Shown: positions 14,470 to 25,134, numbered from the stretch's first letter. The stretch is 64,000 bases of DNA from Phycisphaerales bacterium (GCA_022446905.1 JAKVBT010000008.1:94748-158747), one strand, 5' to 3'. The notes: generated from the sequence alone by a model not told the origin. Translations and numbers: made by a program.

Positions 14470-15831
14470 TCAGAGCTCGGCGACTTTTCTGACTCGTTCA
14501 ATTAATGAAATAGCAGTCGCTTCATCGCTGGCCTCAACAATAATGCGCGCAATTGGCTCGGTATTGCTCGGCCGGACATGTGCCCAGCCCGACTCGAAAT
14601 CAATGCGAACGCCATCTGAGTCATTGATACGCGCGTCACTAAACCCACTCCTTAGCCGGCTGAGGGCTGGATCTAGATCGGAACGATCACGCAACGGCAA
14701 TTTGTCTTTCAGAATGACGTACGACGGCAATGAATCGACCAGCGCAGATAATGTCTTGTCCTCACGACGCATCAAATCGAGCACAAGAACCATCGCTGTT
14801 AGAGAGTCGCGAATCCATGTGACCGCTGGAAGCATGACGCCCCCATTTCCCTCTCCGCCGATTGGGGCCCCTTCTGCACGCATCATTGACGCGACATTTG
14901 CTTCTCCAACCGCACTGCGGTGTACCGTCGCGCCAAATCGATCTGCCAGATCATCAATCATCCGGCTTGTCGATAAGTTGGCCACAAGGGCAATCTCAGG
15001 ATGATCCAGCAGCATGCGCCACACTGAAAGCACCAAGGTGTATTCCTCGCCGATGTAACGACCTTGCTCATCTACCAATGCCAATCGGTCCGCATCAGGG
15101 TCTTGTGCGCAGCCGATATCAGCACCCGATGCCACAACCGCTTCGCACAGACCGCTCAAATTCGCTGCAATCGGCTCTGGCTCATGCCAAAAATGTCCTG
15201 TTGGCTCACTACCAAGATGTTCCACCTGACAATTGATCGATTCCAGCAGCCGCCGCCCCCCCTCGCAGCCTGCACCATTGATTGAGTCAAGAACAACGTG
15301 ATATGACTTGTCTGCCAGAAGGACAGGCTCAATCTGCCCAAGCACTTTGGCAATGTGTGTGTCTGTGGCTCGGGCTTCAACAACCACCTCACCTGGATCC
15401 ATCGCCTCAGGTCGATCCCCTGCCTGAAATGCTGCGATAATCTCAGCTGCCAACTCTGGCTGCGGCGCCATGCCGTTGTGGTCGAGCAGTTTGAGACCGT
15501 TCCATGGCGTTGGGTTGTGTGAAGCTGTCACGACAACACCCCCAGTGGCAGACATTGAGTTGATCATCACGCCGACTGTTGGCGTTGCCACGATGCCCAA
15601 ATCGACAACTTTGCATCCGGCTCGAGACAAGCCTTCCGCAGCTGCTGTCAGCAGATCCCCACCGGACGGCCGGCTGTCACGCCCCAAACAGACCAATGGT
15701 CGTTGATCTGACACATCGACCAAATGCGCGCCCCAGCAGGCTGCAAACCGGCGTGCAACGTGAGTGGTCATGGTCTGGCCGACAATGCCACGAGCTCCAG
15801 ATACCCCAAGCATTAGCGGCGCATCGCTCAT
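14470..15831 (-). CDS. glmM: phosphohexomutase (phosphoglucosamine mutase / phosphomannomutase family)
   Basis: Phosphoserine loop VVVTASHNPTPWNGLK, metal loop GCAQDPDADRLALVD, sugar loop GEEY. Confidence 0.8.
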   Translation of the reverse strand: MSDAPLMLGVSGARGIVGQTMTTHVARRFAACWGAHLVDVSDQRPLVCLGRDSRPSGGDLLTAAAEGLSRAGCKVVDLGIVATPTVGVMINSMSATGGVVVTASHNPTPWNGLKLLDHNGMAPQPELAAEIIAAFQAGDRPEAMDPGEVVVEARATDTHIAKVLGQIEPVLLADKSYHVVLDSINGAGCEGGRRLLESINCQVEHLGSEPTGHFWHEPEPIAANLSGLCEAVVASGADIGCAQDPDADRLALVDEQGRYIGEEYTLVLSVWRMLLDHPEIALVANLSTSRMIDDLADRFGATVHRSAVGEANVASMMRAEGAPIGGEGNGGVMLPAVTWIRDSLTAMVLVLDLMRREDKTLSALVDSLPSYVILKDKLPLRDRSDLDPALSRLRSGFSDARINDSDGVRIDFESGWAHVRPSNTEPIARIIVEASDEATAISLIERVRKVAEL

Positions 15832-16202
15832 TGTGTGAGTTCCATGCGATAGGTTGCTTCACAACCAGGTGCTTCAGTCACACTCACCGCCAGGCGTTCG
15901 ATATTTCCTGAGACTTTGTTTGAGACGGCCTTTGCAATGTGCTCGGCTACACACTCAGCTGTCGGGTTAATCTTGTCGAAGGGGGCTGTGTCGTTCAATG
16001 TCGTGTTGTGCATCGGAGCGAGCACGGCATCAACATGTTGCTCAAGCACATGAAAATCACAAAGAAGCCCCTCGGCATCAAGGCATGAGCCCTCCACCAC
16101 TAGCCGGACACGCCAATCATGTCCATGCATCGTCTCGCGCACACCGCCAATGATGATGGCGTGAGCCGCTGAGAAGACACGTTCAATCTGAAGCCCGTAC
16201 AT
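15828..16202 (-). CDS. queD: 6-carboxy-5,6,7,8-tetrahydropterin synthase
   Basis: 124-aa PTPS-fold protein with FSAAHAI...HGHDWRV. ATGA overlap with glmM. Confidence 0.8.
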   Translation of the reverse strand: MYGLQIERVFSAAHAIIIGGVRETMHGHDWRVRLVVEGSCLDAEGLLCDFHVLEQHVDAVLAPMHNTTLNDTAPFDKINPTAECVAEHIAKAVSNKVSGNIERLAVSVTEAPGCEATYRMELTQ

Positions 16203-16247
16203 CAGCGGCGCAGGGTAGCGACAGTCTGGCCTTGCTGGCGGCCGAAG

Positions 16248-16823
16248 TCATTCAGCCCACGCTACACGTCGCGGAATCGCTGATCCCACGAATCGCATGT
16301 CCTCAATGCCCCCCCCGCCAAGATCTGTCCCGCTGACATCATCACCATTCATACACAGATCAATGGTGGCAGATGTAAGCCATCGACCATCTGAAAACCT
16401 CAGGCGAAACGGGGCGATTGGATCGACACCGACCTCCGGAATTTGGTCAATTCCCTCAAGCAGTAGCCAACTGTTTCCCCCCTCTTCCCAACGCAAGCTT
16501 GATGTTGCAGAGTCCCAAGAAATCTTGACCCAGGATTCATCAGGCATCTGTACCTCAAGAAAGTCCGACTCAACTACTGCATCAGTCGGGCCTGCTGGAA
16601 CTGGAAGAAAGTCTATCCCACTGCGAATCAGTACCTGTGTCCGCTCCACGACCAATCGACCAGAGACACTGGCGGAAACTGAATCGGCTGTCCGGCGGTA
16701 CCCCTCAAAGCTGGTGACGAGCGCCCCAAGCACGGCCGCCATCAACGCTGCACTGATCGCAAGTGCAATGAGCACCTCGATGGTGGTAAAACCTCGCCCT
16801 TGACGATTGCGCATCAACATCAC
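16248..16823 (-). CDS. prepilin-type N-terminal cleavage/methylation domain protein (minor pseudopilin)
   Basis: N-terminus RQGRG|FTTIEVLIALAISAALMAAV, i.e. a G-F cleavage site with Glu at +5. Confidence 0.7.
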   Translation of the reverse strand: MMLMRNRQGRGFTTIEVLIALAISAALMAAVLGALVTSFEGYRRTADSVSASVSGRLVVERTQVLIRSGIDFLPVPAGPTDAVVESDFLEVQMPDESWVKISWDSATSSLRWEEGGNSWLLLEGIDQIPEVGVDPIAPFRLRFSDGRWLTSATIDLCMNGDDVSGTDLGGGGIEDMRFVGSAIPRRVAWAE

Positions 16824-19171
16824 CAGATGCCTCCCTCATACCACGTCACTTCTTGCGCAGAAGTTTGCAAAGGCCAGGGGATGCCATCTGGAAGCAGCGC
16901 ATCGGGGTCGTAGCGAAGAACGGTAGAACCATAACTTCCAAAGGAAGGATGGCTGAGATCAGGCCCTTCCATATCACCATCGGTATCGCCGAAATATCCA
17001 AATGTGGTGTTGAAGGCATCGGGGGTTCCCCCATAGTGCAGCGGCCCTTCCCCTTCAACCGGACGAAAAGTCGTCATTACAGTTCCATGAACTTCGACAG
17101 CACCACGCATGTCAATGATGCCCGCCACGATAGTGCCAGTAAGTGTGATGGGATTTGCTGTGTTGCCATCAAAATTGCCGACATCGACTGACCATCCTGG
17201 GAGCATGATGCTCGATCGCGCCAGTTGATCAAGATCGGATTCAGGCAAAGACGCAAGAAGACCAATGAGCGATGATGCATCCGCCTGAGAAGCAAGCACA
17301 CTGCTCTCTGGGTCAACGAAGAACCTACAGCCGCCAGTCAACTGCACTTTGTTTTTCCAATGCGTAAATTCCAGCGGCCGGTCACCGCCGAGTGTGCCAA
17401 GAAAGGTACACCCATCAAATCGAATGTTGTTTGAGACAACGCGAGTGTCTTCGTAAGCCGTGCCACCACTGGAAGCCGTAAGGTCTGGATAGCGCAATTG
17501 AGCTCCACTTGGCCCTGTCTCCAACGCGCCTGCATAATTCCAATTCACATCCTCACATGCTTCCGTGGTTTCAATCCAAGTCGAACCAACAAAAGTGCAG
17601 TTTTCAAACAATGCATTGTTGCCCATGGGAATGACGACATTCGTGAATGTAATCCCACTATAAATTGGGCGGTCATAGAGGTCATAGGCGCCAATACATC
17701 CGTAAGGGACTCCCTCATAACCAGTCGACGTTGAGCCCGCATTGGGATCGACAGCTGTCTGCACAGAAAACGGCGATCCTGATTGCGCTTTAGATTCGTA
17801 CCAGGTCTGACCATTTAAAAACATATCGCTTGTCAACGACACAAGTTCAGGCTCGGTCATATTGAAGGTGGCTGGTGGTTCAAACGTGTCCGCCCGAACA
17901 ACACCGCGAGCCCGAGTCTGCCAAGAGGCTCCTCTTGCTGCAGTCCATTCACTTGCATCAGCGGCGAAATTGAGATCGCCGCGGATTTTGCAATAACGAT
18001 CGCGTATATCCAATATCCCATCGCCATATCCCATGGCGCGATCAAGACCATCAATCACCCCATCGCGATTGCGGTCAGGGTTTGCATCATCAAGTAGTGC
18101 GGCCATGTCATGGTCAGCGTTAAATTCATCCGTAAGCGTCGTGTGCCCCGCTGCCGCTGCCTTGACTAAGTCAAAAGCCACCATGTTGTCGGCATCACTA
18201 TCAAATTCGCCCAGAAAAAGATCAAAGTCATCAACAAACTGATCACCATCATGATCCAACAGTGCTGGATTCGTCGCCAACCCAATTGCCTCGGTTGGAT
18301 GGCTCGGGCGAAGACGGCCATCCCCGTCAACATCATGTGAGCCGATGATGGTCGAAAAAGCATCCAAGAGTGGATTCAGCGTGGCAGGTGCAAGCTCATA
18401 AAAGTCGCTTCGAAGAAGCAGCGGATCACCAAATTCCGGCTCTAATTCTGAAGCTTCTGTTCCGTACAGCACGCCAACAGGACCATCAATCAGAACATTT
18501 TTGCCAATCATGACACGGGTTTGCCCGAGGACTGCATACTTGATGCGTTTTTCTAGCGCAAAGTCCATTTGAATGACACGCTCGACATCTCGATCTACTC
18601 CTCGAGAGGTGACACGCACACCACTTCCATCAGCGAGCATTTCATAACGCAACTGGTACCAAGGTGAGTTGCTTCCACCATGTAGCGCAATCCCGGGCGA
18701 CTCAACGGTTCCTGCGCCAACGTTGAGACTGCCTGCCACTATGTCACCATTCAAACTGACCGCCGCGTGTCCATCATGATCGATATGAGCATCATGAATG
18801 GCATGCATGAGGCCAGTGCCGGATGGCGAGCTGACTACGTATCCTTCAGTAGGCTGCACGGTCACCGTGCCATCACTGGAGATCCATGTTCCGGTCCATA
18901 ATCGAGAACCGAAGCCATCATCAAGATCGCCAGCCTCTACGACGAATCGGCCGGATTCCCTTGCAAGACGCCACGCTGCCATTTTCATGCCACTTTCAGA
19001 AGCACTCAAACTCCGAGACATGCGAATAGCAGCATCTGCGCTGCGCACATTGCCTTCGGCAACAATGGCCATAACTGAGACTAATGAAGCTACAACGGCC
19101 AGAAACATCATCGCCATAACTGAGGCGATTCCGCGACGACAAAGAAGATGGGCTCGTTGATCATTTGTCAT
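16820..19171 (-). CDS. giant GspK/PilX-like pseudopilin-type protein with Ca-binding Asp repeats and a beta-helix-like region
   Basis: N-terminus MTNDQRAHLLCRRGIASVMAMMFLAVVASLV has a hydrophobic pilin-like helix and no Glu at +5, as in GspK. It also has DVDGDGRL, DHDGDQFVDDFD and NPDRNRDGVIDGLD repeats, plus NALFENCTFVGS / NNIRFDGCTFLG. ATGA overlaps occur at both ends (19168-19171 and 16820-16823). The longest ORF starts at 19186. Confidence 0.6.
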   Translation of the reverse strand: MTNDQRAHLLCRRGIASVMAMMFLAVVASLVSVMAIVAEGNVRSADAAIRMSRSLSASESGMKMAAWRLARESGRFVVEAGDLDDGFGSRLWTGTWISSDGTVTVQPTEGYVVSSPSGTGLMHAIHDAHIDHDGHAAVSLNGDIVAGSLNVGAGTVESPGIALHGGSNSPWYQLRYEMLADGSGVRVTSRGVDRDVERVIQMDFALEKRIKYAVLGQTRVMIGKNVLIDGPVGVLYGTEASELEPEFGDPLLLRSDFYELAPATLNPLLDAFSTIIGSHDVDGDGRLRPSHPTEAIGLATNPALLDHDGDQFVDDFDLFLGEFDSDADNMVAFDLVKAAAAGHTTLTDEFNADHDMAALLDDANPDRNRDGVIDGLDRAMGYGDGILDIRDRYCKIRGDLNFAADASEWTAARGASWQTRARGVVRADTFEPPATFNMTEPELVSLTSDMFLNGQTWYESKAQSGSPFSVQTAVDPNAGSTSTGYEGVPYGCIGAYDLYDRPIYSGITFTNVVIPMGNNALFENCTFVGSTWIETTEACEDVNWNYAGALETGPSGAQLRYPDLTASSGGTAYEDTRVVSNNIRFDGCTFLGTLGGDRPLEFTHWKNKVQLTGGCRFFVDPESSVLASQADASSLIGLLASLPESDLDQLARSSIMLPGWSVDVGNFDGNTANPITLTGTIVAGIIDMRGAVEVHGTVMTTFRPVEGEGPLHYGGTPDAFNTTFGYFGDTDGDMEGPDLSHPSFGSYGSTVLRYDPDALLPDGIPWPLQTSAQEVTWYEGGIW

Positions 19172-19695
19172 TGCACATGCACCCACGTCACAGTAGTGAT
19201 CAACTCGTCTTTGCCACTATCCGGCTGCCAATACACATCAACCGATACCCGCACAGCTTCTGAAGTTCCATCGACTACGACAGTGGCGATGTTGGTTGGC
19301 TCCACTGATTCCACGGTCACAACTTGACGCCAGTTCTCCAAATGCGCAATCACCGATCGAGTGGAATCGAGAGGGCCGGTCCCAGCCCCAAACGACACGT
19401 CGAGGCCGTCAAAATCATCTAGATCGTCCCAGTCGGCCATACTGACTTCGCCTGGCTCAGGTCCCCAGGTTGCCGAACCTGTGACTGGATCCATAATTGG
19501 CAAAGACATTGTCATCTCACGAATCTCATTGCCGATACGCGCCGCGTCAGCGGCACGAGCACCCCAACGATTCTGTTGGTGGAAGGCCTCCTGTGCTGAA
19601 AGCATGGCCAACATGGCGGTTGCCAGAATGACGATCGCCAAGCCGGTTTCGACGAGCGTGAATGCACGGCGTGAGTTGCGAGCGATGTGAGTCAT
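19168..19695 (-). CDS. prepilin-type N-terminal domain protein (pseudopilin)
   Basis: RRA|FTLVETGLAIVILATAMLAML: Ala rather than Gly at -1, Glu at +5. ATGA overlap with gspF. Confidence 0.65.
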   Translation of the reverse strand: MTHIARNSRRAFTLVETGLAIVILATAMLAMLSAQEAFHQQNRWGARAADAARIGNEIREMTMSLPIMDPVTGSATWGPEPGEVSMADWDDLDDFDGLDVSFGAGTGPLDSTRSVIAHLENWRQVVTVESVEPTNIATVVVDGTSEAVRVSVDVYWQPDSGKDELITTVTWVHVQ

Positions 19696-20918
19696 CCTGA
19701 GACCACCGAACTCATTTTGAAGATTGGAAGAATGATTGCCATGGCAATGAAACCAACGACCGAACCCATGACCACGATCAGAATTGGTTCAATCATGCTT
19801 GTCATCGCCTTAATCGCATCCCGAAGCACCTTCTGATAGAAGTTGGCAACTTCTTCGAGGACTTCACCCAAGCGACCCGACTCCTCGCCTGCAGCAACCA
19901 TCTGTACGACAGATTGAGGGAAGAGTGTGGAAGACTCCATCTCTTCGTGTAGCTTGCGGCCTTCGCGAACTGCTCCGTGGACTTTTTTAAACAATCCGTG
20001 ATAACGCGTATTGCCTGTGATGTCTCCAGTTACTGATACCGCATCCAGTACCGGCACTCCGGCGTTAAGTAACTCGCCCATCGTCTGCAGCGACCGACTC
20101 ACATACAAAGCACGGAACATCCGGCGAAAGAGAGGGACTACGAGTTTGGCTTGATCCAGCGTGCGATTACCAGCCTTCGTCTTCAGGAATCCGATCAATA
20201 AGGCCAAGACGCCCGCGGAACAGCCGACCAAGATTTTCCACTCAGTGACCATGAACTCACTGAGGCCCATGAGAAACTTGGTCGATCCAGGAAGGGCTTC
20301 TTCTTTGCCCGCAAAGACGCCTGCAAAGCGAGGCAATACGAAAGTCAAAAGAAAGACCGTCACACCTGTTGCCATTGTGGCGATGATTCCTGGGTAGATG
20401 CTGGCCCCAACCACCATCTTTCGAGTCTCAAGCTGCTGCGATATGAAGGCTGCAATTCGATCGAGCATCGTCGCGAAGGAGCCGGACATCTCTGAAGCCT
20501 TGACCATATTCACATAGAGCGCATTGAACTGCTTCGGATACTGACTTATCGCTTCGGAAAATGACTTTCCAGATTCAACATCTGCGCGTACCTGCAGAAT
20601 GATCTTTCTGAACTTGGCATTTTTGATCTGTAGAGCAATGCCCTCAAGTGCCTGACGAAGGTTGATCCCGGCACGAATCATGACCGCCAACTGAATGGTG
20701 AAGTCCAGTACTTCCTTCTGACTGGGTCCACTTCCTGAATTGAGGACTTCACCGACACGCTTCCAGTCAATCCGCAATTTTGGCTGAGCAGCAATTTTGA
20801 GAACATGATGTCCTTGTTGACGCAGCGTCATAGCAGCAGCTGTTGATGTTTCTGCAGACAGCGTCCCAGTTTCCACACGACCGGATGCATTACGTGCTTC
20901 CCAGCGATACTCAGTCAT
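19692..20918 (-). CDS. type II secretion / type IV pilus platform protein (GspF/PilC family)
   Basis: Duplicated GspF domain architecture of about 400 aa with 3 TM segments, e.g. LAVMIRAGINLRQAL and MGELLNAGVPVLDAV. Confidence 0.88.
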   Translation of the reverse strand: MTEYRWEARNASGRVETGTLSAETSTAAAMTLRQQGHHVLKIAAQPKLRIDWKRVGEVLNSGSGPSQKEVLDFTIQLAVMIRAGINLRQALEGIALQIKNAKFRKIILQVRADVESGKSFSEAISQYPKQFNALYVNMVKASEMSGSFATMLDRIAAFISQQLETRKMVVGASIYPGIIATMATGVTVFLLTFVLPRFAGVFAGKEEALPGSTKFLMGLSEFMVTEWKILVGCSAGVLALLIGFLKTKAGNRTLDQAKLVVPLFRRMFRALYVSRSLQTMGELLNAGVPVLDAVSVTGDITGNTRYHGLFKKVHGAVREGRKLHEEMESSTLFPQSVVQMVAAGEESGRLGEVLEEVANFYQKVLRDAIKAMTSMIEPILIVVMGSVVGFIAMAIILPIFKMSSVVSG

Positions 20919-20927
20919 CAGGTGGCA

Positions 20928-21983
20928 TCAGGCCGCAATGGCCCGCTCCATTGCAGCGGGATTGGACGACCTGGTCACGGCATCGGCGTGGCTGATCATT
21001 CCGTTGTAGTAAAGAGAAGCAATTGATGCATCGAGTGTCGTCATCCCCAGCCGCTGACTGGTTTCAATGACATTTGGTATTTCAAATGTGCGGTTCTCTC
21101 GGATGAGATTTCGCACAGCCGGAGTACACAAGAGGATTTCCACTGCGGGAACCATTCCTGCAATGTCGACGCGTGGCAACAAAGTTTGAGACACGACCGC
21201 CTGCAGAGTGTCGCCAAGCATGGAGCGGATCTGATTCTGCTGGCTAGCTGGATACATGTCGACAATTCGCTCGACAGTCTGCGCTGCGCTCGCTGTATGC
21301 AACGTAGAAAGAACAAGGTGGCCCGTTTCTGCAGCACTAATTGCCAAAGAGGTCGTTTCGAGGTCACGCATCTCGCCAACTAGAATGATGTCTGGATCTT
21401 GACGAAGTGCATGCTTAAGCCCAGAGGCAAAGTCAGGCATATCTTCGCCGCGCTCACGCTGCTCAATCAGACAGCAATCCGAATCGAATGTGTATTCGAT
21501 TGGATCCTCAAGGGTGATGATGTGCTTTCGTTGGCTAGCGTTAATTGACTCAATAATGGCCGCAAGAGTCGTCGACTTTCCTGACCCAGTATCTCCAGTA
21601 ACCAAGACCAAACCCCGGGGTAGCGTGGCGAAGCGAGTCACTACATCTGGCAGATTCAGTGACTCGATGGCTGGAACTTCATCTCGAATCGCGCGGAGGG
21701 CCATGGCTGGACCCGTTCGCTGTTTATGGATGTTCACCCGATACCGCCCAAGTGCCTCGGTGGCATAAGAGAGATCAACATCTTGCTGATGCTCAAATCG
21801 CTCGCGGTGCAATGGACTGGCAATCTCAGCCATATACCTCTCGATGGCCTGAACCGTCAAAATCGGCAGTTCAAGAGGCTGCATGACCGTATTGACCCGC
21901 ACCATGGGACGGTGTCCAGGGACGAGGTGGATATCACTGGCCTCATGCTCATGAGCCGCGGCCAGAATGAAGTCGATGGACAT
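20928..21983 (-). CDS. pilT: PilT-family (retraction-type, short) secretion ATPase
   Basis: Walker A GDTGSGKSTT, Walker B ILVGEMRD, His box GHLVLSTLHT, PilT signature PAVRNLIRE. About 350 aa, with no GspE/PilB N-terminal domains and no tetracysteine motif. Start set at MSIDFIL; the longest ORF runs to 22052. Confidence 0.85.
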   Translation of the reverse strand: MSIDFILAAAHEHEASDIHLVPGHRPMVRVNTVMQPLELPILTVQAIERYMAEIASPLHRERFEHQQDVDLSYATEALGRYRVNIHKQRTGPAMALRAIRDEVPAIESLNLPDVVTRFATLPRGLVLVTGDTGSGKSTTLAAIIESINASQRKHIITLEDPIEYTFDSDCCLIEQRERGEDMPDFASGLKHALRQDPDIILVGEMRDLETTSLAISAAETGHLVLSTLHTASAAQTVERIVDMYPASQQNQIRSMLGDTLQAVVSQTLLPRVDIAGMVPAVEILLCTPAVRNLIRENRTFEIPNVIETSQRLGMTTLDASIASLYYNGMISHADAVTRSSNPAAMERAIAA

Positions 21984-22175
21984 GCAGCGTCCTCCACCTG
22001 AAAGGTCAAACGGACCAACCCCGCACAACGCAGGGAGGCGTCCATGAATCAATCGGCCCAGTGAGGGGGTTCATTCACTTCGCTTCTGATCAGGCCGTCG
22101 GGTCGGTGGAACTGTGACGGTCAGAACGACGGGCTGGGCTGACTATGACGATGGTTTGGCTGCTATCGTGCTCGC

Positions 22176-22637
22176 ATGCGCCCCTTGAGCCTGCTCATAT
22201 TTCTTGGTCTGCTGGTTGGCGGCTGCTCTGCGGCCCCCCGCGTCACCGTCAATCCTGATGTTGTCATTACCGATCGACAAGCAGATGCTCAGGCGGGAAA
22301 CGTGTCGATATCGATAGTCAATCTCAACGACCACCCCATCGAGGTCATTGAGTATCACTACACAGCGACGGCATCTGGGCAATCAACGTGGCGAGGTCGC
22401 CACGCTGGCGGTCTCGTGCTCGCTTCTGGCATTGACCGTCATGTGAATCTGCCAATCGTACTTCCGCCGAATGTTAATGATGGCACAACAGTGTCTATCA
22501 GCGGCGAAGTTCGATATCTCGATACCAGCACGATCGCCCAGACACTCAGCGAATGGGGCTACCGGCCTTCGGTCGGCTTCAACGGCCAGCCCATTGTGAC
22601 CAATCGTCCCACCCCACTAGCTGATCAAGATGGCTGA
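22176..22637 (+). CDS. lipoprotein, possibly LEA_2/WHy-like
   Basis: Signal plus lipobox MRPLSLLIFLGLLVGGC. The beta-rich body (NVSISIVNLNDHPIEVIEYHY...) is reminiscent of LEA type 2 lipoproteins. Confidence 0.5.
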   Translation: MRPLSLLIFLGLLVGGCSAAPRVTVNPDVVITDRQADAQAGNVSISIVNLNDHPIEVIEYHYTATASGQSTWRGRHAGGLVLASGIDRHVNLPIVLPPNVNDGTTVSISGEVRYLDTSTIAQTLSEWGYRPSVGFNGQPIVTNRPTPLADQDG

Positions 22638-23772: not shown

Positions 23773-25134
23773 TCATACAATCGCCTGATCGGCATCAACC
23801 ATCATAAACCTGATATGCGCTTCTGCGGCTTCCCGATCGCCGACATACGAACGGCAACGAATAGAGGCCGTGCGGGTGCTCGCCCGAATAGTCTCAGCCT
23901 CCAACACCAGTTGATCACCAGGCGTTACCGGATGGCGAAGTTTGACCTTGTCAAGGCTCAGCAGGACCGCGACTTTGCCTGTGTGTTCTAGGGTCTGACT
24001 CAAGAGCAAACCACCCAGCTGCGCCATCGCCTCCACAATCAACACCCCCGGCATGATCGGCGTCCCTGGATAGTGCCCGCTGAAGAATGGCTCGTTAATA
24101 GTGACATTCTTTACCCCGACGGCCTTCTTGTTGCCCTCCACGTGTACCACCCGATCAACGAGAAGCATGGGATAGCGATGCGGCATGATCTGCTGAATTG
24201 CCCGAATATCCATGGTGCGACCAGCATTCAGTTGGTCATTGCGACGCTGCAGCTCCGCCTGCGCCCGAATTTCCCGACACATGCGTCGATTGAGCACATG
24301 TCCGGATCGTGTCGCAACAAAGTGACCGCACACCGGTGCGCCGACCAACATCAAATCGCCGATCAAATCAAGAATCTTGTGTCGCACTGGCTCATTGCCG
24401 AATCGCCACTCATTGTCAATTGGCCCGTTTTCACCAATCACCAACGCTTCTGCTGGCGTAAGGTGGCTGCACAAACCGTGCTCCTGCAAAGACGCCGCTT
24501 CTTCCTCAAGGCTGAAGGTGCGTGCAGGGCCGATGTCGGCGAGATAACCCGATTCGCTCAATGTAAATGCGAATGCCTGTCTAGGGATTCGATCCGAATC
24601 ACTCCCATAATCCAGTTCATAAATGGCATGAAAAGATTCGCCGCCATTTGGAAATGCCGCAAGCATAGCACCGCCTTCTTCAAGAACAATGGGCTCTGTA
24701 ATAGCCACAACTTCCCGTGTGGCGTCTTGAACAGACACACCGGCTTGCTGGATCGCATCAATAAATGGCGCCGCACTGCCATCGCCGAGTGGCACTTCGG
24801 GACCAGTGACTGCTAACAGGGCATTGTCGATCCCACAGCCGCGAAGCGCCGATAGGCAATGCTCTACAGTTTCAATCACGACTTCGCCGTCACAAAGTAC
24901 CGTTCGGCGATCACGATCAACCGCATAATCAACGACTGCGGGAATGCGGACAGCAGGATTAAGGTCGGACCGCTCAAAGACAATTCCATGGCCTGGAGGC
25001 GCAGGTCGAATCTCGAGGTCAACCTCTGATCCGTGCATTAAACCGCGGCCACTAACCGTTGCTACATTCGCCACCGTCTGCTGGGACTCAGACAGTGCTG
25101 GTTCACTTTGACTTGTAGTGGCAACGTCATTCAT
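23773..25134 (-). CDS. lpxC/fabZ: bifunctional UDP-3-O-acyl-GlcNAc deacetylase / 3-hydroxyacyl-ACP dehydratase
   Basis: N-terminal LpxC (GRGLMHGSEV..., TVEHCLSAL, HKILDLIGDL) fused to C-terminal FabZ (PHRYPMLLVDRV, FFSGHYPGTPIMPGVLIVEAMAQ). Confidence 0.92.
   Translation of the reverse strand: MNDVATTSQSEPALSESQQTVANVATVSGRGLMHGSEVDLEIRPAPPGHGIVFERSDLNPAVRIPAVVDYAVDRDRRTVLCDGEVVIETVEHCLSALRGCGIDNALLAVTGPEVPLGDGSAAPFIDAIQQAGVSVQDATREVVAITEPIVLEEGGAMLAAFPNGGESFHAIYELDYGSDSDRIPRQAFAFTLSESGYLADIGPARTFSLEEEAASLQEHGLCSHLTPAEALVIGENGPIDNEWRFGNEPVRHKILDLIGDLMLVGAPVCGHFVATRSGHVLNRRMCREIRAQAELQRRNDQLNAGRTMDIRAIQQIMPHRYPMLLVDRVVHVEGNKKAVGVKNVTINEPFFSGHYPGTPIMPGVLIVEAMAQLGGLLLSQTLEHTGKVAVLLSLDKVKLRHPVTPGDQLVLEAETIRASTRTASIRCRSYVGDREAAEAHIRFMMVDADQAIV

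Follow-up and report, generated by a model that had tools for sequence, protein, structure and literature searches.

The analysed stretch of DNA (64,000 nt; hereafter, the window) carries on its minus strand a block of five genes, and both the genes and their order agree with the initial annotation, the ORFs matching the description. These are pilT (20928..21983), encoding a hexameric ATPase of the PilT family (retraction-type); pilC/gspF (19692..20918), encoding an inner-membrane platform protein of 408 aa; pp1 (19168..19695), encoding a small prepilin-type minor pilin of 175 aa with the cleavage site RRA|FTLVE; the gene of a large pilin-like protein (16820..19171; 783 aa from the ATG, or 788 aa from a GTG further upstream); and pp2 (16248..16823), encoding another prepilin-type minor pilin of 191 aa with the cleavage site GRG|FTTIE. 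Three ATGA overlaps had been proposed between the last four genes; by the coordinates, those at 19692-19695 and 19168-19171 are ATGA, but the one at 16820-16823 is GTGA, the other reading being TGATG with the ATG at 16820-16818. A gap of 192 nt (21984..22175) separates pilT from a divergent lipoprotein gene. The five-gene block (hereafter, the cassette) is retained in distant contigs though the flanks differ, and is present in 94 of the 121 sampled genomes of the order; thus, it is not a chance arrangement.

The ORF of the ATPase is open to a TTG at 22052 (20928-22052, 374 aa). The true start is likely the ATG at 21983, which is preceded by GGAGGA and yields a protein of 351 aa, the orthologues being 351-353 aa long. 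The protein scores 437.1 bits on TIGR01420 (the PilT/PilU family; cut-off 319.1), compared to 147 bits on the GspE model (cut-off 630), 140 bits on the PilB model (cut-off 676) and 141 bits on the ComGA model (cut-off 300). The same tendency is seen with the solved structures in the PDB, where PilT gives 286-305 bits, PilU, 203-232, and PilB/GspE, 104-116. The Walker A (GDTGSGKST), Walker B (DPDIILVGEMRD) and His box (TGHLVLSTLH) motifs are intact, as in most orthologues, and so is the PilT signature AVRNLIRE, which the initial annotation had noted together with the length of about 350 aa. T2SSE (residues 26-296) is the sole Pfam domain; an N-terminal MshEN/GSPII_E_N domain was not found with Pfam, and CxxC pairs are absent from the translation. 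In a phylogenetic tree built without named reference sequences for PilU or PilT, short and long ATPases are split with support 100, and the window ATPase falls on the PilT side, outside the assembly-ATPase clades, in one group with PilTs from the pilus clusters of other genomes (support 97). Judging by sequence, the ATPase belongs to the PilT/PilU family and is of the retraction type.

The platform protein has two PF00482 domains (199.8 bits), scores 330 bits on the GspF model and 293-295 bits on the PilC models, each under its equivalog cut-off, and is 53-61% identical to the platforms of the contiguous clusters described below. For the small pilins, only tentative assignments can be made. 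In pp1, tentatively GspI/PilV-like, a class III signal is visible in the translation; there are no Pfam or NCBIfam matches, and one homologue is named PilV family protein at NCBI. Its AF2 model (pLDDT 87.9) consists of a long N-terminal helix and a three-stranded sheet, and a fold search with it gave no significant match, GspI (3ci0_I) being at rank 27 with probability 0.33. An acidic loop of pp1 is strongly conserved, with the consensus DxDDLDDFDG (DWDDLDDFDG at residues 88-97 in the window): D90-F95 and G97 are invariant in an alignment of 9 sequences, and in one of 52 sequences variation is absent at D91, D93 and D94 and almost absent at D90 and G97. This loop may bind calcium. The Ala at the -1 position of the cleavage site, initially pointed out as a peculiarity, is real, and most pp1 orthologues have Gly; still, it is not special, and five other prepilins of the same genome share it. 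The second small pilin, pp2, matches PF07963 N_methyl (23.2 bits, cut-off 21.2) and TIGR02532 (19.0 bits, cut-off 16.3), and its orthologues follow the large gene in all clusters examined; it is, again tentatively, GspJ/PilW-like.

The 783-aa protein had been labelled GspK-like. Its N-terminus, of the GspK/PilX style and lacking Glu5, fits this label, but PF03934 (T2SSK) is not matched, nor is any other Pfam or NCBIfam family at E <= 0.01. Among 101 homologues, all named ones come from Phycisphaerales or Planctomycetota MAGs. A stretch rich in Asp, with motifs of the DxDxDG type, probably binds calcium. The AF2 model (pLDDT 88.8, pTM 0.84) has the order N-terminal helix, sheet, Asp-rich region, solenoid (482-700), last strand (769-779). 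With Foldseek at E <= 0.001 it matches only three chains, those of Thermus ComZ 6QVI (best E 5.8e-6, probability 0.99), with a TM of only 0.19-0.26 and 9% identity; ice-binding beta-solenoids are lower in the list, and matches to them are reported for ComZ itself too (PMC6561018). The pilin domain of ComZ is reported to be closest to GspK (PMC6561018), and a tip or priming role has been described for ComZ and for cyanobacterial PilX pilins with a beta-solenoid (PMC6561018; PMC13759059). The 783-aa protein is a putative ComZ/PilX-like cap with a beta-solenoid, and such a cap would be situated at the filament tip.

As had been stated initially, there is no PilB/GspE, secretin or prepilin peptidase in the window, and contig C78, to which the window belongs, lacks both a secretin and any further T2SSE ATPase. 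The genome in total contains 5 platforms, 7 long ATPases and 4 secretins; its other machines include the main pilB-pilT-pilB-pilC cluster on contig C45 and a pilin-pilMNOPQ-pilB-pilC cluster on contig C4. A search of the whole genome recovered PilM/N/O and one prepilin peptidase, but neither a secretin nor a major pilin specific to the system. The peptidase gene (C45:336921), unlinked to pilus clusters, is the only PF01478 match genome-wide (30.6 bits, cut-off 26.5). No secretin lies in or beside the clusters examined, and an orphan secretin (C45:160528-163563) occurs in cassette-negative relatives too; the secretin may be common to another system. The clusters have no further pilin gene, and about 30 prepilin-like genes are found elsewhere in the genome; pp1 might conceivably be the shaft subunit. 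PilY1 was not seen in the clusters examined.

The PilM/N/O genes lie in the same genome (2.58 Mb) on contig C79 (C79:50787-55657), where a pilM-like gene, pilN, pilO, a gene for a 215-aa protein and pilB follow each other. This PilB (C79:50787-52556; 589 aa) has MshEN and full T2SSE domains, carries CxxC pairs, and reaches 588 bits against the GspE model and 562 against that of PilB. PilN (26.9 bits, cut-off 22.8) and PilO (59.9 bits, cut-off 22) exceed the Pfam cut-offs; the PilM-like protein is under it (16.5 vs 27 bits), is conserved and is encoded in the PilM position.

In five fetched genomes from three other families, analysed with tblastn, all ten genes form one co-directional cluster in the order pilMNO-x-pilB-pilT-pilC-pilin-large pilin-pilin, with 40-150 nt between the end of pilB and pilT. 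By coordinates, a spacing of about 8.5 kb separates PilM from the large pilin gene downstream of it in at least 19 genomes of these three families, the five included; the full ten-gene contiguity was read in the five fetched genomes, and the count of at least 19 rests on this spacing. The C79 PilB forms a clade (SH-aLRT 99) with the PilBs encoded directly upstream of pilT in other genomes, and the branching of the PilB subtree closely parallels that of the PilT subtree. Thus, the two halves in the window's genome are orthologous to the halves of the contiguous cluster, the operon break is between pilB and pilT, and the halves are on different contigs here. The initial annotation had named, as an outcome that would refute it, a canonical locus directly beside the five genes in a conserved arrangement; such a locus is there in the relatives, but not in this genome.

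The distribution of the halves shows the same linkage. Among the 121 genomes of the order, which are kin, so that the counts are not independent, both the cassette and the PilM-like gene are present in 94, neither in 18, the cassette alone in none, and the PilM-like gene alone in 9; the latter comprise 6 weak matches (E 1e-6 to 1e-8) and 3 genomes that are 78-88% complete. In the window's own family both halves are present in 19 genomes and absent in the same 10, which may reflect a single loss. In G452 (2.0 Mb), the smallest of the genomes examined, every long ATPase has a platform next to it except the pilMNO-linked PilB, and every platform has a long ATPase next to it except the cassette PilC; once this PilB is assigned to the cassette platform, motors and platforms pair off exactly.

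Taken together, these observations make it highly probable that the window contains the distal half of a ten-gene operon of the type IVa pilus kind, split in this lineage. The proximal half would provide the inner-membrane alignment complex and the extension ATPase, and the window half, the retraction ATPase PilT, the platform PilC and three pilins. The latter (GspI/PilV-like, the ComZ/PilX-like cap and GspJ/PilW-like) most likely form a priming/tip complex. The single prepilin peptidase of the genome would process pp1 and pp2, and a primer of the three pilins would then form on PilC; PilB, situated under PilC, would extend the filament using a shaft pilin from elsewhere in the genome, the large cap at the tip acting as an adhesin or a ligand receptor, and, finally, PilT would take the place of PilB and the filament would retract. 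Once apart from pilB, pilT requires a promoter, whose presumed site is the gap at 21984..22175; we only infer it, since the gap showed no sigma-70-like site and, across the region scanned, such sites were no more numerous than in shuffled sequence. The initial annotation had also considered a retraction module for a filament encoded elsewhere. Other parts are indeed encoded elsewhere, but besides PilT the module encodes a platform and priming/tip pilins, and hence it is half of a machine, not an accessory.

There are several other ways to interpret the ten genes. They might constitute a complete second inner-membrane machine (PilB, PilT, PilC, PilMNO and the tip trio) without its own shaft pilin and secretin, which either competes for a shared pilin pool and outer-membrane pore or drives a short periplasmic pseudopilus retracted by PilT; we regard this as improbable. 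If true, such a pseudopilus would be a natural "piston with a retraction motor", thought to be missing from T2SS.

A similarly low likelihood is assigned to the cassette being an accessory module of another complete machine (e.g. that on C45 or C4) and not of C79, with the linkage in relatives being historical only. Sharing of parts is possible given the numbers of platforms, long ATPases and secretins in the genome, the cassette itself encodes neither a shaft pilin nor a secretin, and the closest paralogues of both the cassette PilC and the C79 PilB belong to the C4 system. However, the presence and absence of the halves agree strictly, also where the halves are separated, the order of the PilB and PilT subtrees matches closely, and a platform and an alignment complex without a cognate motor would be unexpected over hundreds of genomes.

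It is still less plausible that the ten genes build solely a periplasmic T2SS-like pseudopilus of three pilins, a piston truly retracted by PilT, with no surface pilus. This would agree with the lack of a dedicated major pilin and secretin, with the resemblance of the three pilins to the GspI-GspK-GspJ tip trio in number and N-terminal features, and with possible calcium binding by the acidic loop of pp1; but PilM/N/O together with PilT are the signature of a type IVa pilus, not of T2SS, the cluster has no equivalents of GspL, GspM, GspC or GspG, and a 783-aa beta-solenoid cap suits a surface adhesin or a receptor such as ComZ.

Finally, the initially suggested assembly by the PilT-like enzyme, which would be the sole bifunctional motor (extending and retracting, like CpaF in Tad pili) of a self-contained five-gene pseudopilus machine, is barely tenable: pilT-pilC adjacency is conserved in every cluster examined, no long ATPase is nearby in this genome, and there are precedents of a single motor serving for both extension and retraction (CpaF; PMC12019362) and of PilT promoting MSHA pilus extension (PMC9815625), but the ATPase retains the PilT signature and has no N-terminal domains of an extension motor, the G452 motors and platforms pair exactly with PilB on the cassette platform, and the cognate PilB, encoded with PilM/N/O on C79, has an orthologue in all cassette-positive genomes sampled (94 of 94), adjoining pilT upstream in at least 19.

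The split ten-gene operon has the MshEN extension ATPase, the AxRNLIRE PilT-family ATPase, the two-domain platform, PilN and PilO, minor pilins with class III signals and one shared prepilin peptidase in common with the type IVa pilus machine of Myxococcus, Pseudomonas and Thermus. The gene order pilB-pilT-pilC is found in the main C45 cluster of this genome, and in cyanobacteria and Myxococcus too. Unlike the type IVa machine, the present cluster lacks a secretin and a shaft pilin, has only three pilins and a very divergent PilM, and is split. A large beta-solenoid pilin-like protein encoded between two small pilins is also present in the pilA1-pilA2-comZ-pilA3-pilA4 locus of Thermus thermophilus (6QVI; PMC6561018). 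The beta-solenoid of ComZ precedes the last strand of the pilin fold, and the order of secondary structure in the model suggests the same for the 783-aa protein, although the latter is approximately 230-280 residues longer and has the extra Asp-rich region. The cyanobacterial minor-pilin sets (PilX/PilV/PilW, HpsA type; PMC13759059) are similarly small, have a solenoid PilX-like cap and include no major pilin; it has been proposed that they serve as primers of a specialised filament and take over from PilY1 (PMC13759059). These sets, however, share one motor machine, whereas in Phycisphaerales the genes of the set are linked to a PilB, PilT, PilC and PilMNO of their own. The T2SS tip GspI-GspJ-GspK also comprises three pilin-like proteins, the large one without Glu5; here, the gene order is I-K-J-like, and the inserted part is a beta-solenoid instead of an alpha-domain. 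Moreover, T2SS has no PilT, and in our case PilN and PilO, not GspL/M, are linked, with no secretin or GspG-like gene in the cluster.

Most likely, the genes belong to a pilus machine of the ordinary kind, which does not depend on PilT as its only motor, and the operon appeared to be PilT-only because one locus of a split system was read alone. The apparent exception disappears, and the rule holds that a platform protein works with an extension motor of the PilB/GspE type. This is also a worked case of a missing-component puzzle resolved via co-occurrence and synteny in relatives. In the literature searched there are no studies of pilus genetics in this lineage, for which we define a pilus system conserved across the order Phycisphaerales (94 of the 121 sampled genomes). 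ComEC is near-universal in the order whether the cassette is present or not, and, given this independent distribution, there is no specific link to competence. The presumed tip protein, resembling the Thermus DNA receptor ComZ and the cyanobacterial solenoid PilX caps, provides candidates for adhesion, DNA uptake and surface behaviour in marine Planctomycetota.

Reading of the open frames yielded five tightly packed genes on the minus strand at window positions 16248-22052, encoding, in order, a PilT-type ATPase, a PilC platform, a small prepilin-type protein (pp1), a large pilin-like protein and a second small prepilin-type protein (pp2); this block is referred to as the cassette. The ATPase frame is open to a TTG at 22052 (374 aa), its likely start being the ATG at 21983, since GGAGGA precedes that codon and it yields 351 aa; orthologues in other genomes are of 351-353 aa. 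The platform carries two PF00482 domains. The cleavage sites of pp1 (175 aa) and pp2 (191 aa) read RRA/FTLVE and GRG/FTTIE, respectively, with the N_methyl match of pp2 above the cut-off, and the large protein (783 aa) has a hydrophobic N-terminus lacking Glu5. The initial annotation had described exactly these five genes, and this description holds: the contig with the window (C78) contains no second T2SSE ATPase and no secretin, and the single prepilin peptidase of the genome is located on another contig, C45. Two of the three ATGA overlaps listed there are indeed ATGA, but the third, at the junction of the large gene and pp2 (16820-16823), reads GTGA, and the ATG directly after it gives TGATG. 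The start of pp2 is ambiguous by one codon, the TGATG reading applying if ATG 16820 is the start.

Over positions 15700-22400 the promoter and terminator scan gave no excess of sites over shuffled sequence, and the gap upstream of pilT had none. An unusual processing route signalled by Ala at position -1 of pp1 was rejected, as Ala at this position is common among the prepilins of the genome and is not conserved in the orthologues. Nearby, at 23773-25134, the translation of one 453-aa open frame reads LpxC and then FabZ (PHRYPMLLVDRV...).

The window ATPase scored 437 bits against the PilT/PilU family model TIGR01420 (cut-off 319), and only 140-147 bits against the GspE and PilB equivalogs (cut-offs 630-676). 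Against solved structures, the scores were 286-305 bits for PilT, 203-232 for PilU and 104-116 for PilB/GspE. Walker A, Walker B, the His box and the AVRNLIRE motif are all retained.

For the large protein we observed 101 homologues; those with a name belong to metagenome bins of Phycisphaerales or Planctomycetota. Among 400 sampled genomes of the phylum it was confined to the order of the window, and in a separate sample of 121 genomes of this order it occurs in 94, across all six families. The same five genes in the same order were found in three distant contigs with unrelated flanks.

The assembly of the window's own genome (2.58 Mb, 79 contigs, 96% complete) encodes three PilT-family ATPases, seven long ones of the PilB/GspE type and one distant degenerate ATPase, along with five platforms, four secretins and about 30 prepilin-like genes. 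No platform is encoded next to three of the long ATPases, among them a 589-aa PilB on contig C79 (C79:50787-52556), the last in a translationally coupled row following the genes for a PilM-like protein, PilN, PilO and a 215-aa protein. PilN and PilO exceed the Pfam cut-offs, the PilM-like protein falls below its own (16.5 vs 27 bits), and the PilB has MshEN and a complete T2SSE domain, scoring 588 bits with the GspE model and 562 bits with the PilB model. The nearest paralogues of this PilB and of the cassette PilC are members of one cluster on contig C4, which comprises a canonical 151-aa pilin, PilMNOP, a secretin, PilB and PilC, and has no PilT.

Several other loci of this genome were recorded alongside. 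In the main pilus cluster (C45:447670-468495), five large prepilins of 289-676 aa and a protein of 2680 aa come after pilB-pilT-pilB-pilC; the cluster includes two extension ATPases, with no pilMNO nearby. Within C45:595075-597654 lies the third PilT-family ATPase (379 aa; TIGR01420, 394 bits), with AVQKYILE instead of AIRNLIRE. Its gene overlaps by 4 nt that of a 553-aa protein (the pair spans C45:595075-597872) with membrane segments at the N-terminus and a GspE-like domain in which Walker A is degenerate (APAGQGLS, lacking Lys); the coordinates show a comparable adjacent pair in 8 of 8 relatives examined for ATPases. On contig C67, a 3111-aa secretin-domain protein (C67:133956-143291) ends a T2SS-like cluster of GspF, three pilins, a 491-aa GspK-like protein and GspL/M-like genes, with no adjacent GspE; the counterpart in genome G419 is a 3109-aa open frame.

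The PilM-like protein of C79 served as a query in the same 121 genomes as in the cassette count. It had a match in all 94 cassette-positive genomes and none in 18 genomes, all of which lack the cassette, genomes of one order being non-independent samples. A match without the cassette was seen in nine genomes, where six matches are weak (E 2e-6 to 1e-8) and three genomes are only 78-88% complete. The window's own family shows full agreement: 19 genomes carry both the PilM match and the cassette, and 10 carry neither.

Families f4, f104 and f105 include at least 19 genomes in which the PilM match shares contig and strand with the large gene and lies upstream of it by approximately 8.5 kb. For all five regions fetched, tblastn with the ten proteins of the window's genome demonstrated one co-directional ten-gene cluster, in the order pilM, pilN, pilO, a 0.8-1.1 kb gene, pilB, pilT, pilC, pp1, the large gene and pp2, with 40-150 nt between the end of pilB and pilT. 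The distance between the two halves is about 26-28 kb in family f3; in f1 and f2 they are far apart or on separate contigs. In G452, a related genome of 2.0 Mb, the cassette and the pilMNO-pilB locus are 45 kb apart on one contig; there, the sole long ATPase without an adjacent platform is the pilMNO-linked PilB, and the sole platform without an adjacent long ATPase is the cassette PilC. In the ATPase tree, the short and long enzymes separate with support 100, the window ATPase groups with the PilTs of the clusters (support 97), and the C79 PilB groups with the PilBs adjoining pilT in contiguous clusters (support 99). The branching orders of the PilB and PilT subtrees match closely.

From these comparisons, the cassette most probably represents the distal half of a cluster of ten genes that is divided between pilB and pilT, the direction of the change, split or fusion, being unrooted; the C79-type PilB would be the extension motor cognate to the PilT-type enzyme. 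The initial annotation came nearer the truth with its suggestion of a retraction module serving a filament whose genes lie elsewhere, but the platform and the pilins belong to the module as well. Its other suggestion, that the PilT-type enzyme itself is the filament assembly motor, is not supported, and nothing requires it. For the ten-gene system, function, including retraction, is presumed from family knowledge.

Neither a shaft pilin nor a secretin was found inside or beside any cluster examined; the only conserved flank of the contiguous clusters is a family-level neighbour (about 270 aa) downstream in f4, with no pilin or secretin. An orphan secretin (C45:160528-163563) was considered as the pore and rejected: full-length orthologues occur in the cassette-negative relatives G382, G456 and G424, so it has no specific tie to the system. 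Within its gene, about 120 nt (C45:162085-162205) match dozens of sites scattered through related genomes at 70-94% identity (for example, 36 matches in G382 and 30 in G456), and may represent either a dispersed repeat or a coding motif that recurs. The distribution of ComEC (PF03772) was likewise discarded as a test of competence: found in 118 of 121 genomes, cassette-negative ones included, it is near-universal in the order and thus uninformative on such a role. The pilin and the pore could plausibly be shared with another system.

The AlphaFold model of the large protein is confident (pLDDT 88.8, pTM 0.84). In it, a long helix at the N-terminus is followed by a sheet, a helical region rich in Asp with DxDxDG-like motifs, a beta-solenoid (approximately residues 482-700) and, at 769-779, the final strand. 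The only Foldseek matches with E < 0.001 were three chains of ComZ from Thermus thermophilus (6QVI; E 5.8e-6, probability 0.99), at low TM (0.19-0.26) and 9% identity; ice-binding solenoids appeared further down. For ComZ, a pilin domain resembling that of GspK is reported, into which a solenoid is inserted ahead of the last strand, together with relatives among ice-binding proteins, a complex with PilA2 and a tip location argued on steric grounds (PMC6561018). In cyanobacteria, a 2026 study placed PilX pilins with a solenoid in core priming sets, proposing them as a cap in place of PilY1 (PMC13759059). By family knowledge, the large protein would be located at the tip.

The pp1 model (pLDDT 87.9) shows a long helix and a three-stranded sheet; Foldseek gave nothing with E < 0.2, with GspI only at rank 27, and when profiles of pp1 and pp2 were compared with PDB sequences, the N-terminal pilin helix alone matched (E 0.004-1). 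Tentatively, by size, position and N-terminal pattern only, pp1 is GspI/PilV-like and pp2 is GspJ/PilW-like. The acidic loop of pp1 (window 19405-19434; residues 88-97, DWDDLDDFDG; consensus DxDDLDDFDG) has D91, D93 and D94 invariant, and D90 and G97 nearly so, in 52 homologues, and may bind calcium as sites in some pseudopilins do.

As PilB, PilT, PilC, PilN and PilO are all present, the predicted system is type IVa-pilus-like by content, and not a T2SS; its tip set resembles both the Thermus and the cyanobacterial ones. In the literature searched, nothing specific on pili of Phycisphaerae was found, and all evidence on the system is comparative. The central puzzle, a pilus operon with PilT alone, is resolved in an ordinary way.
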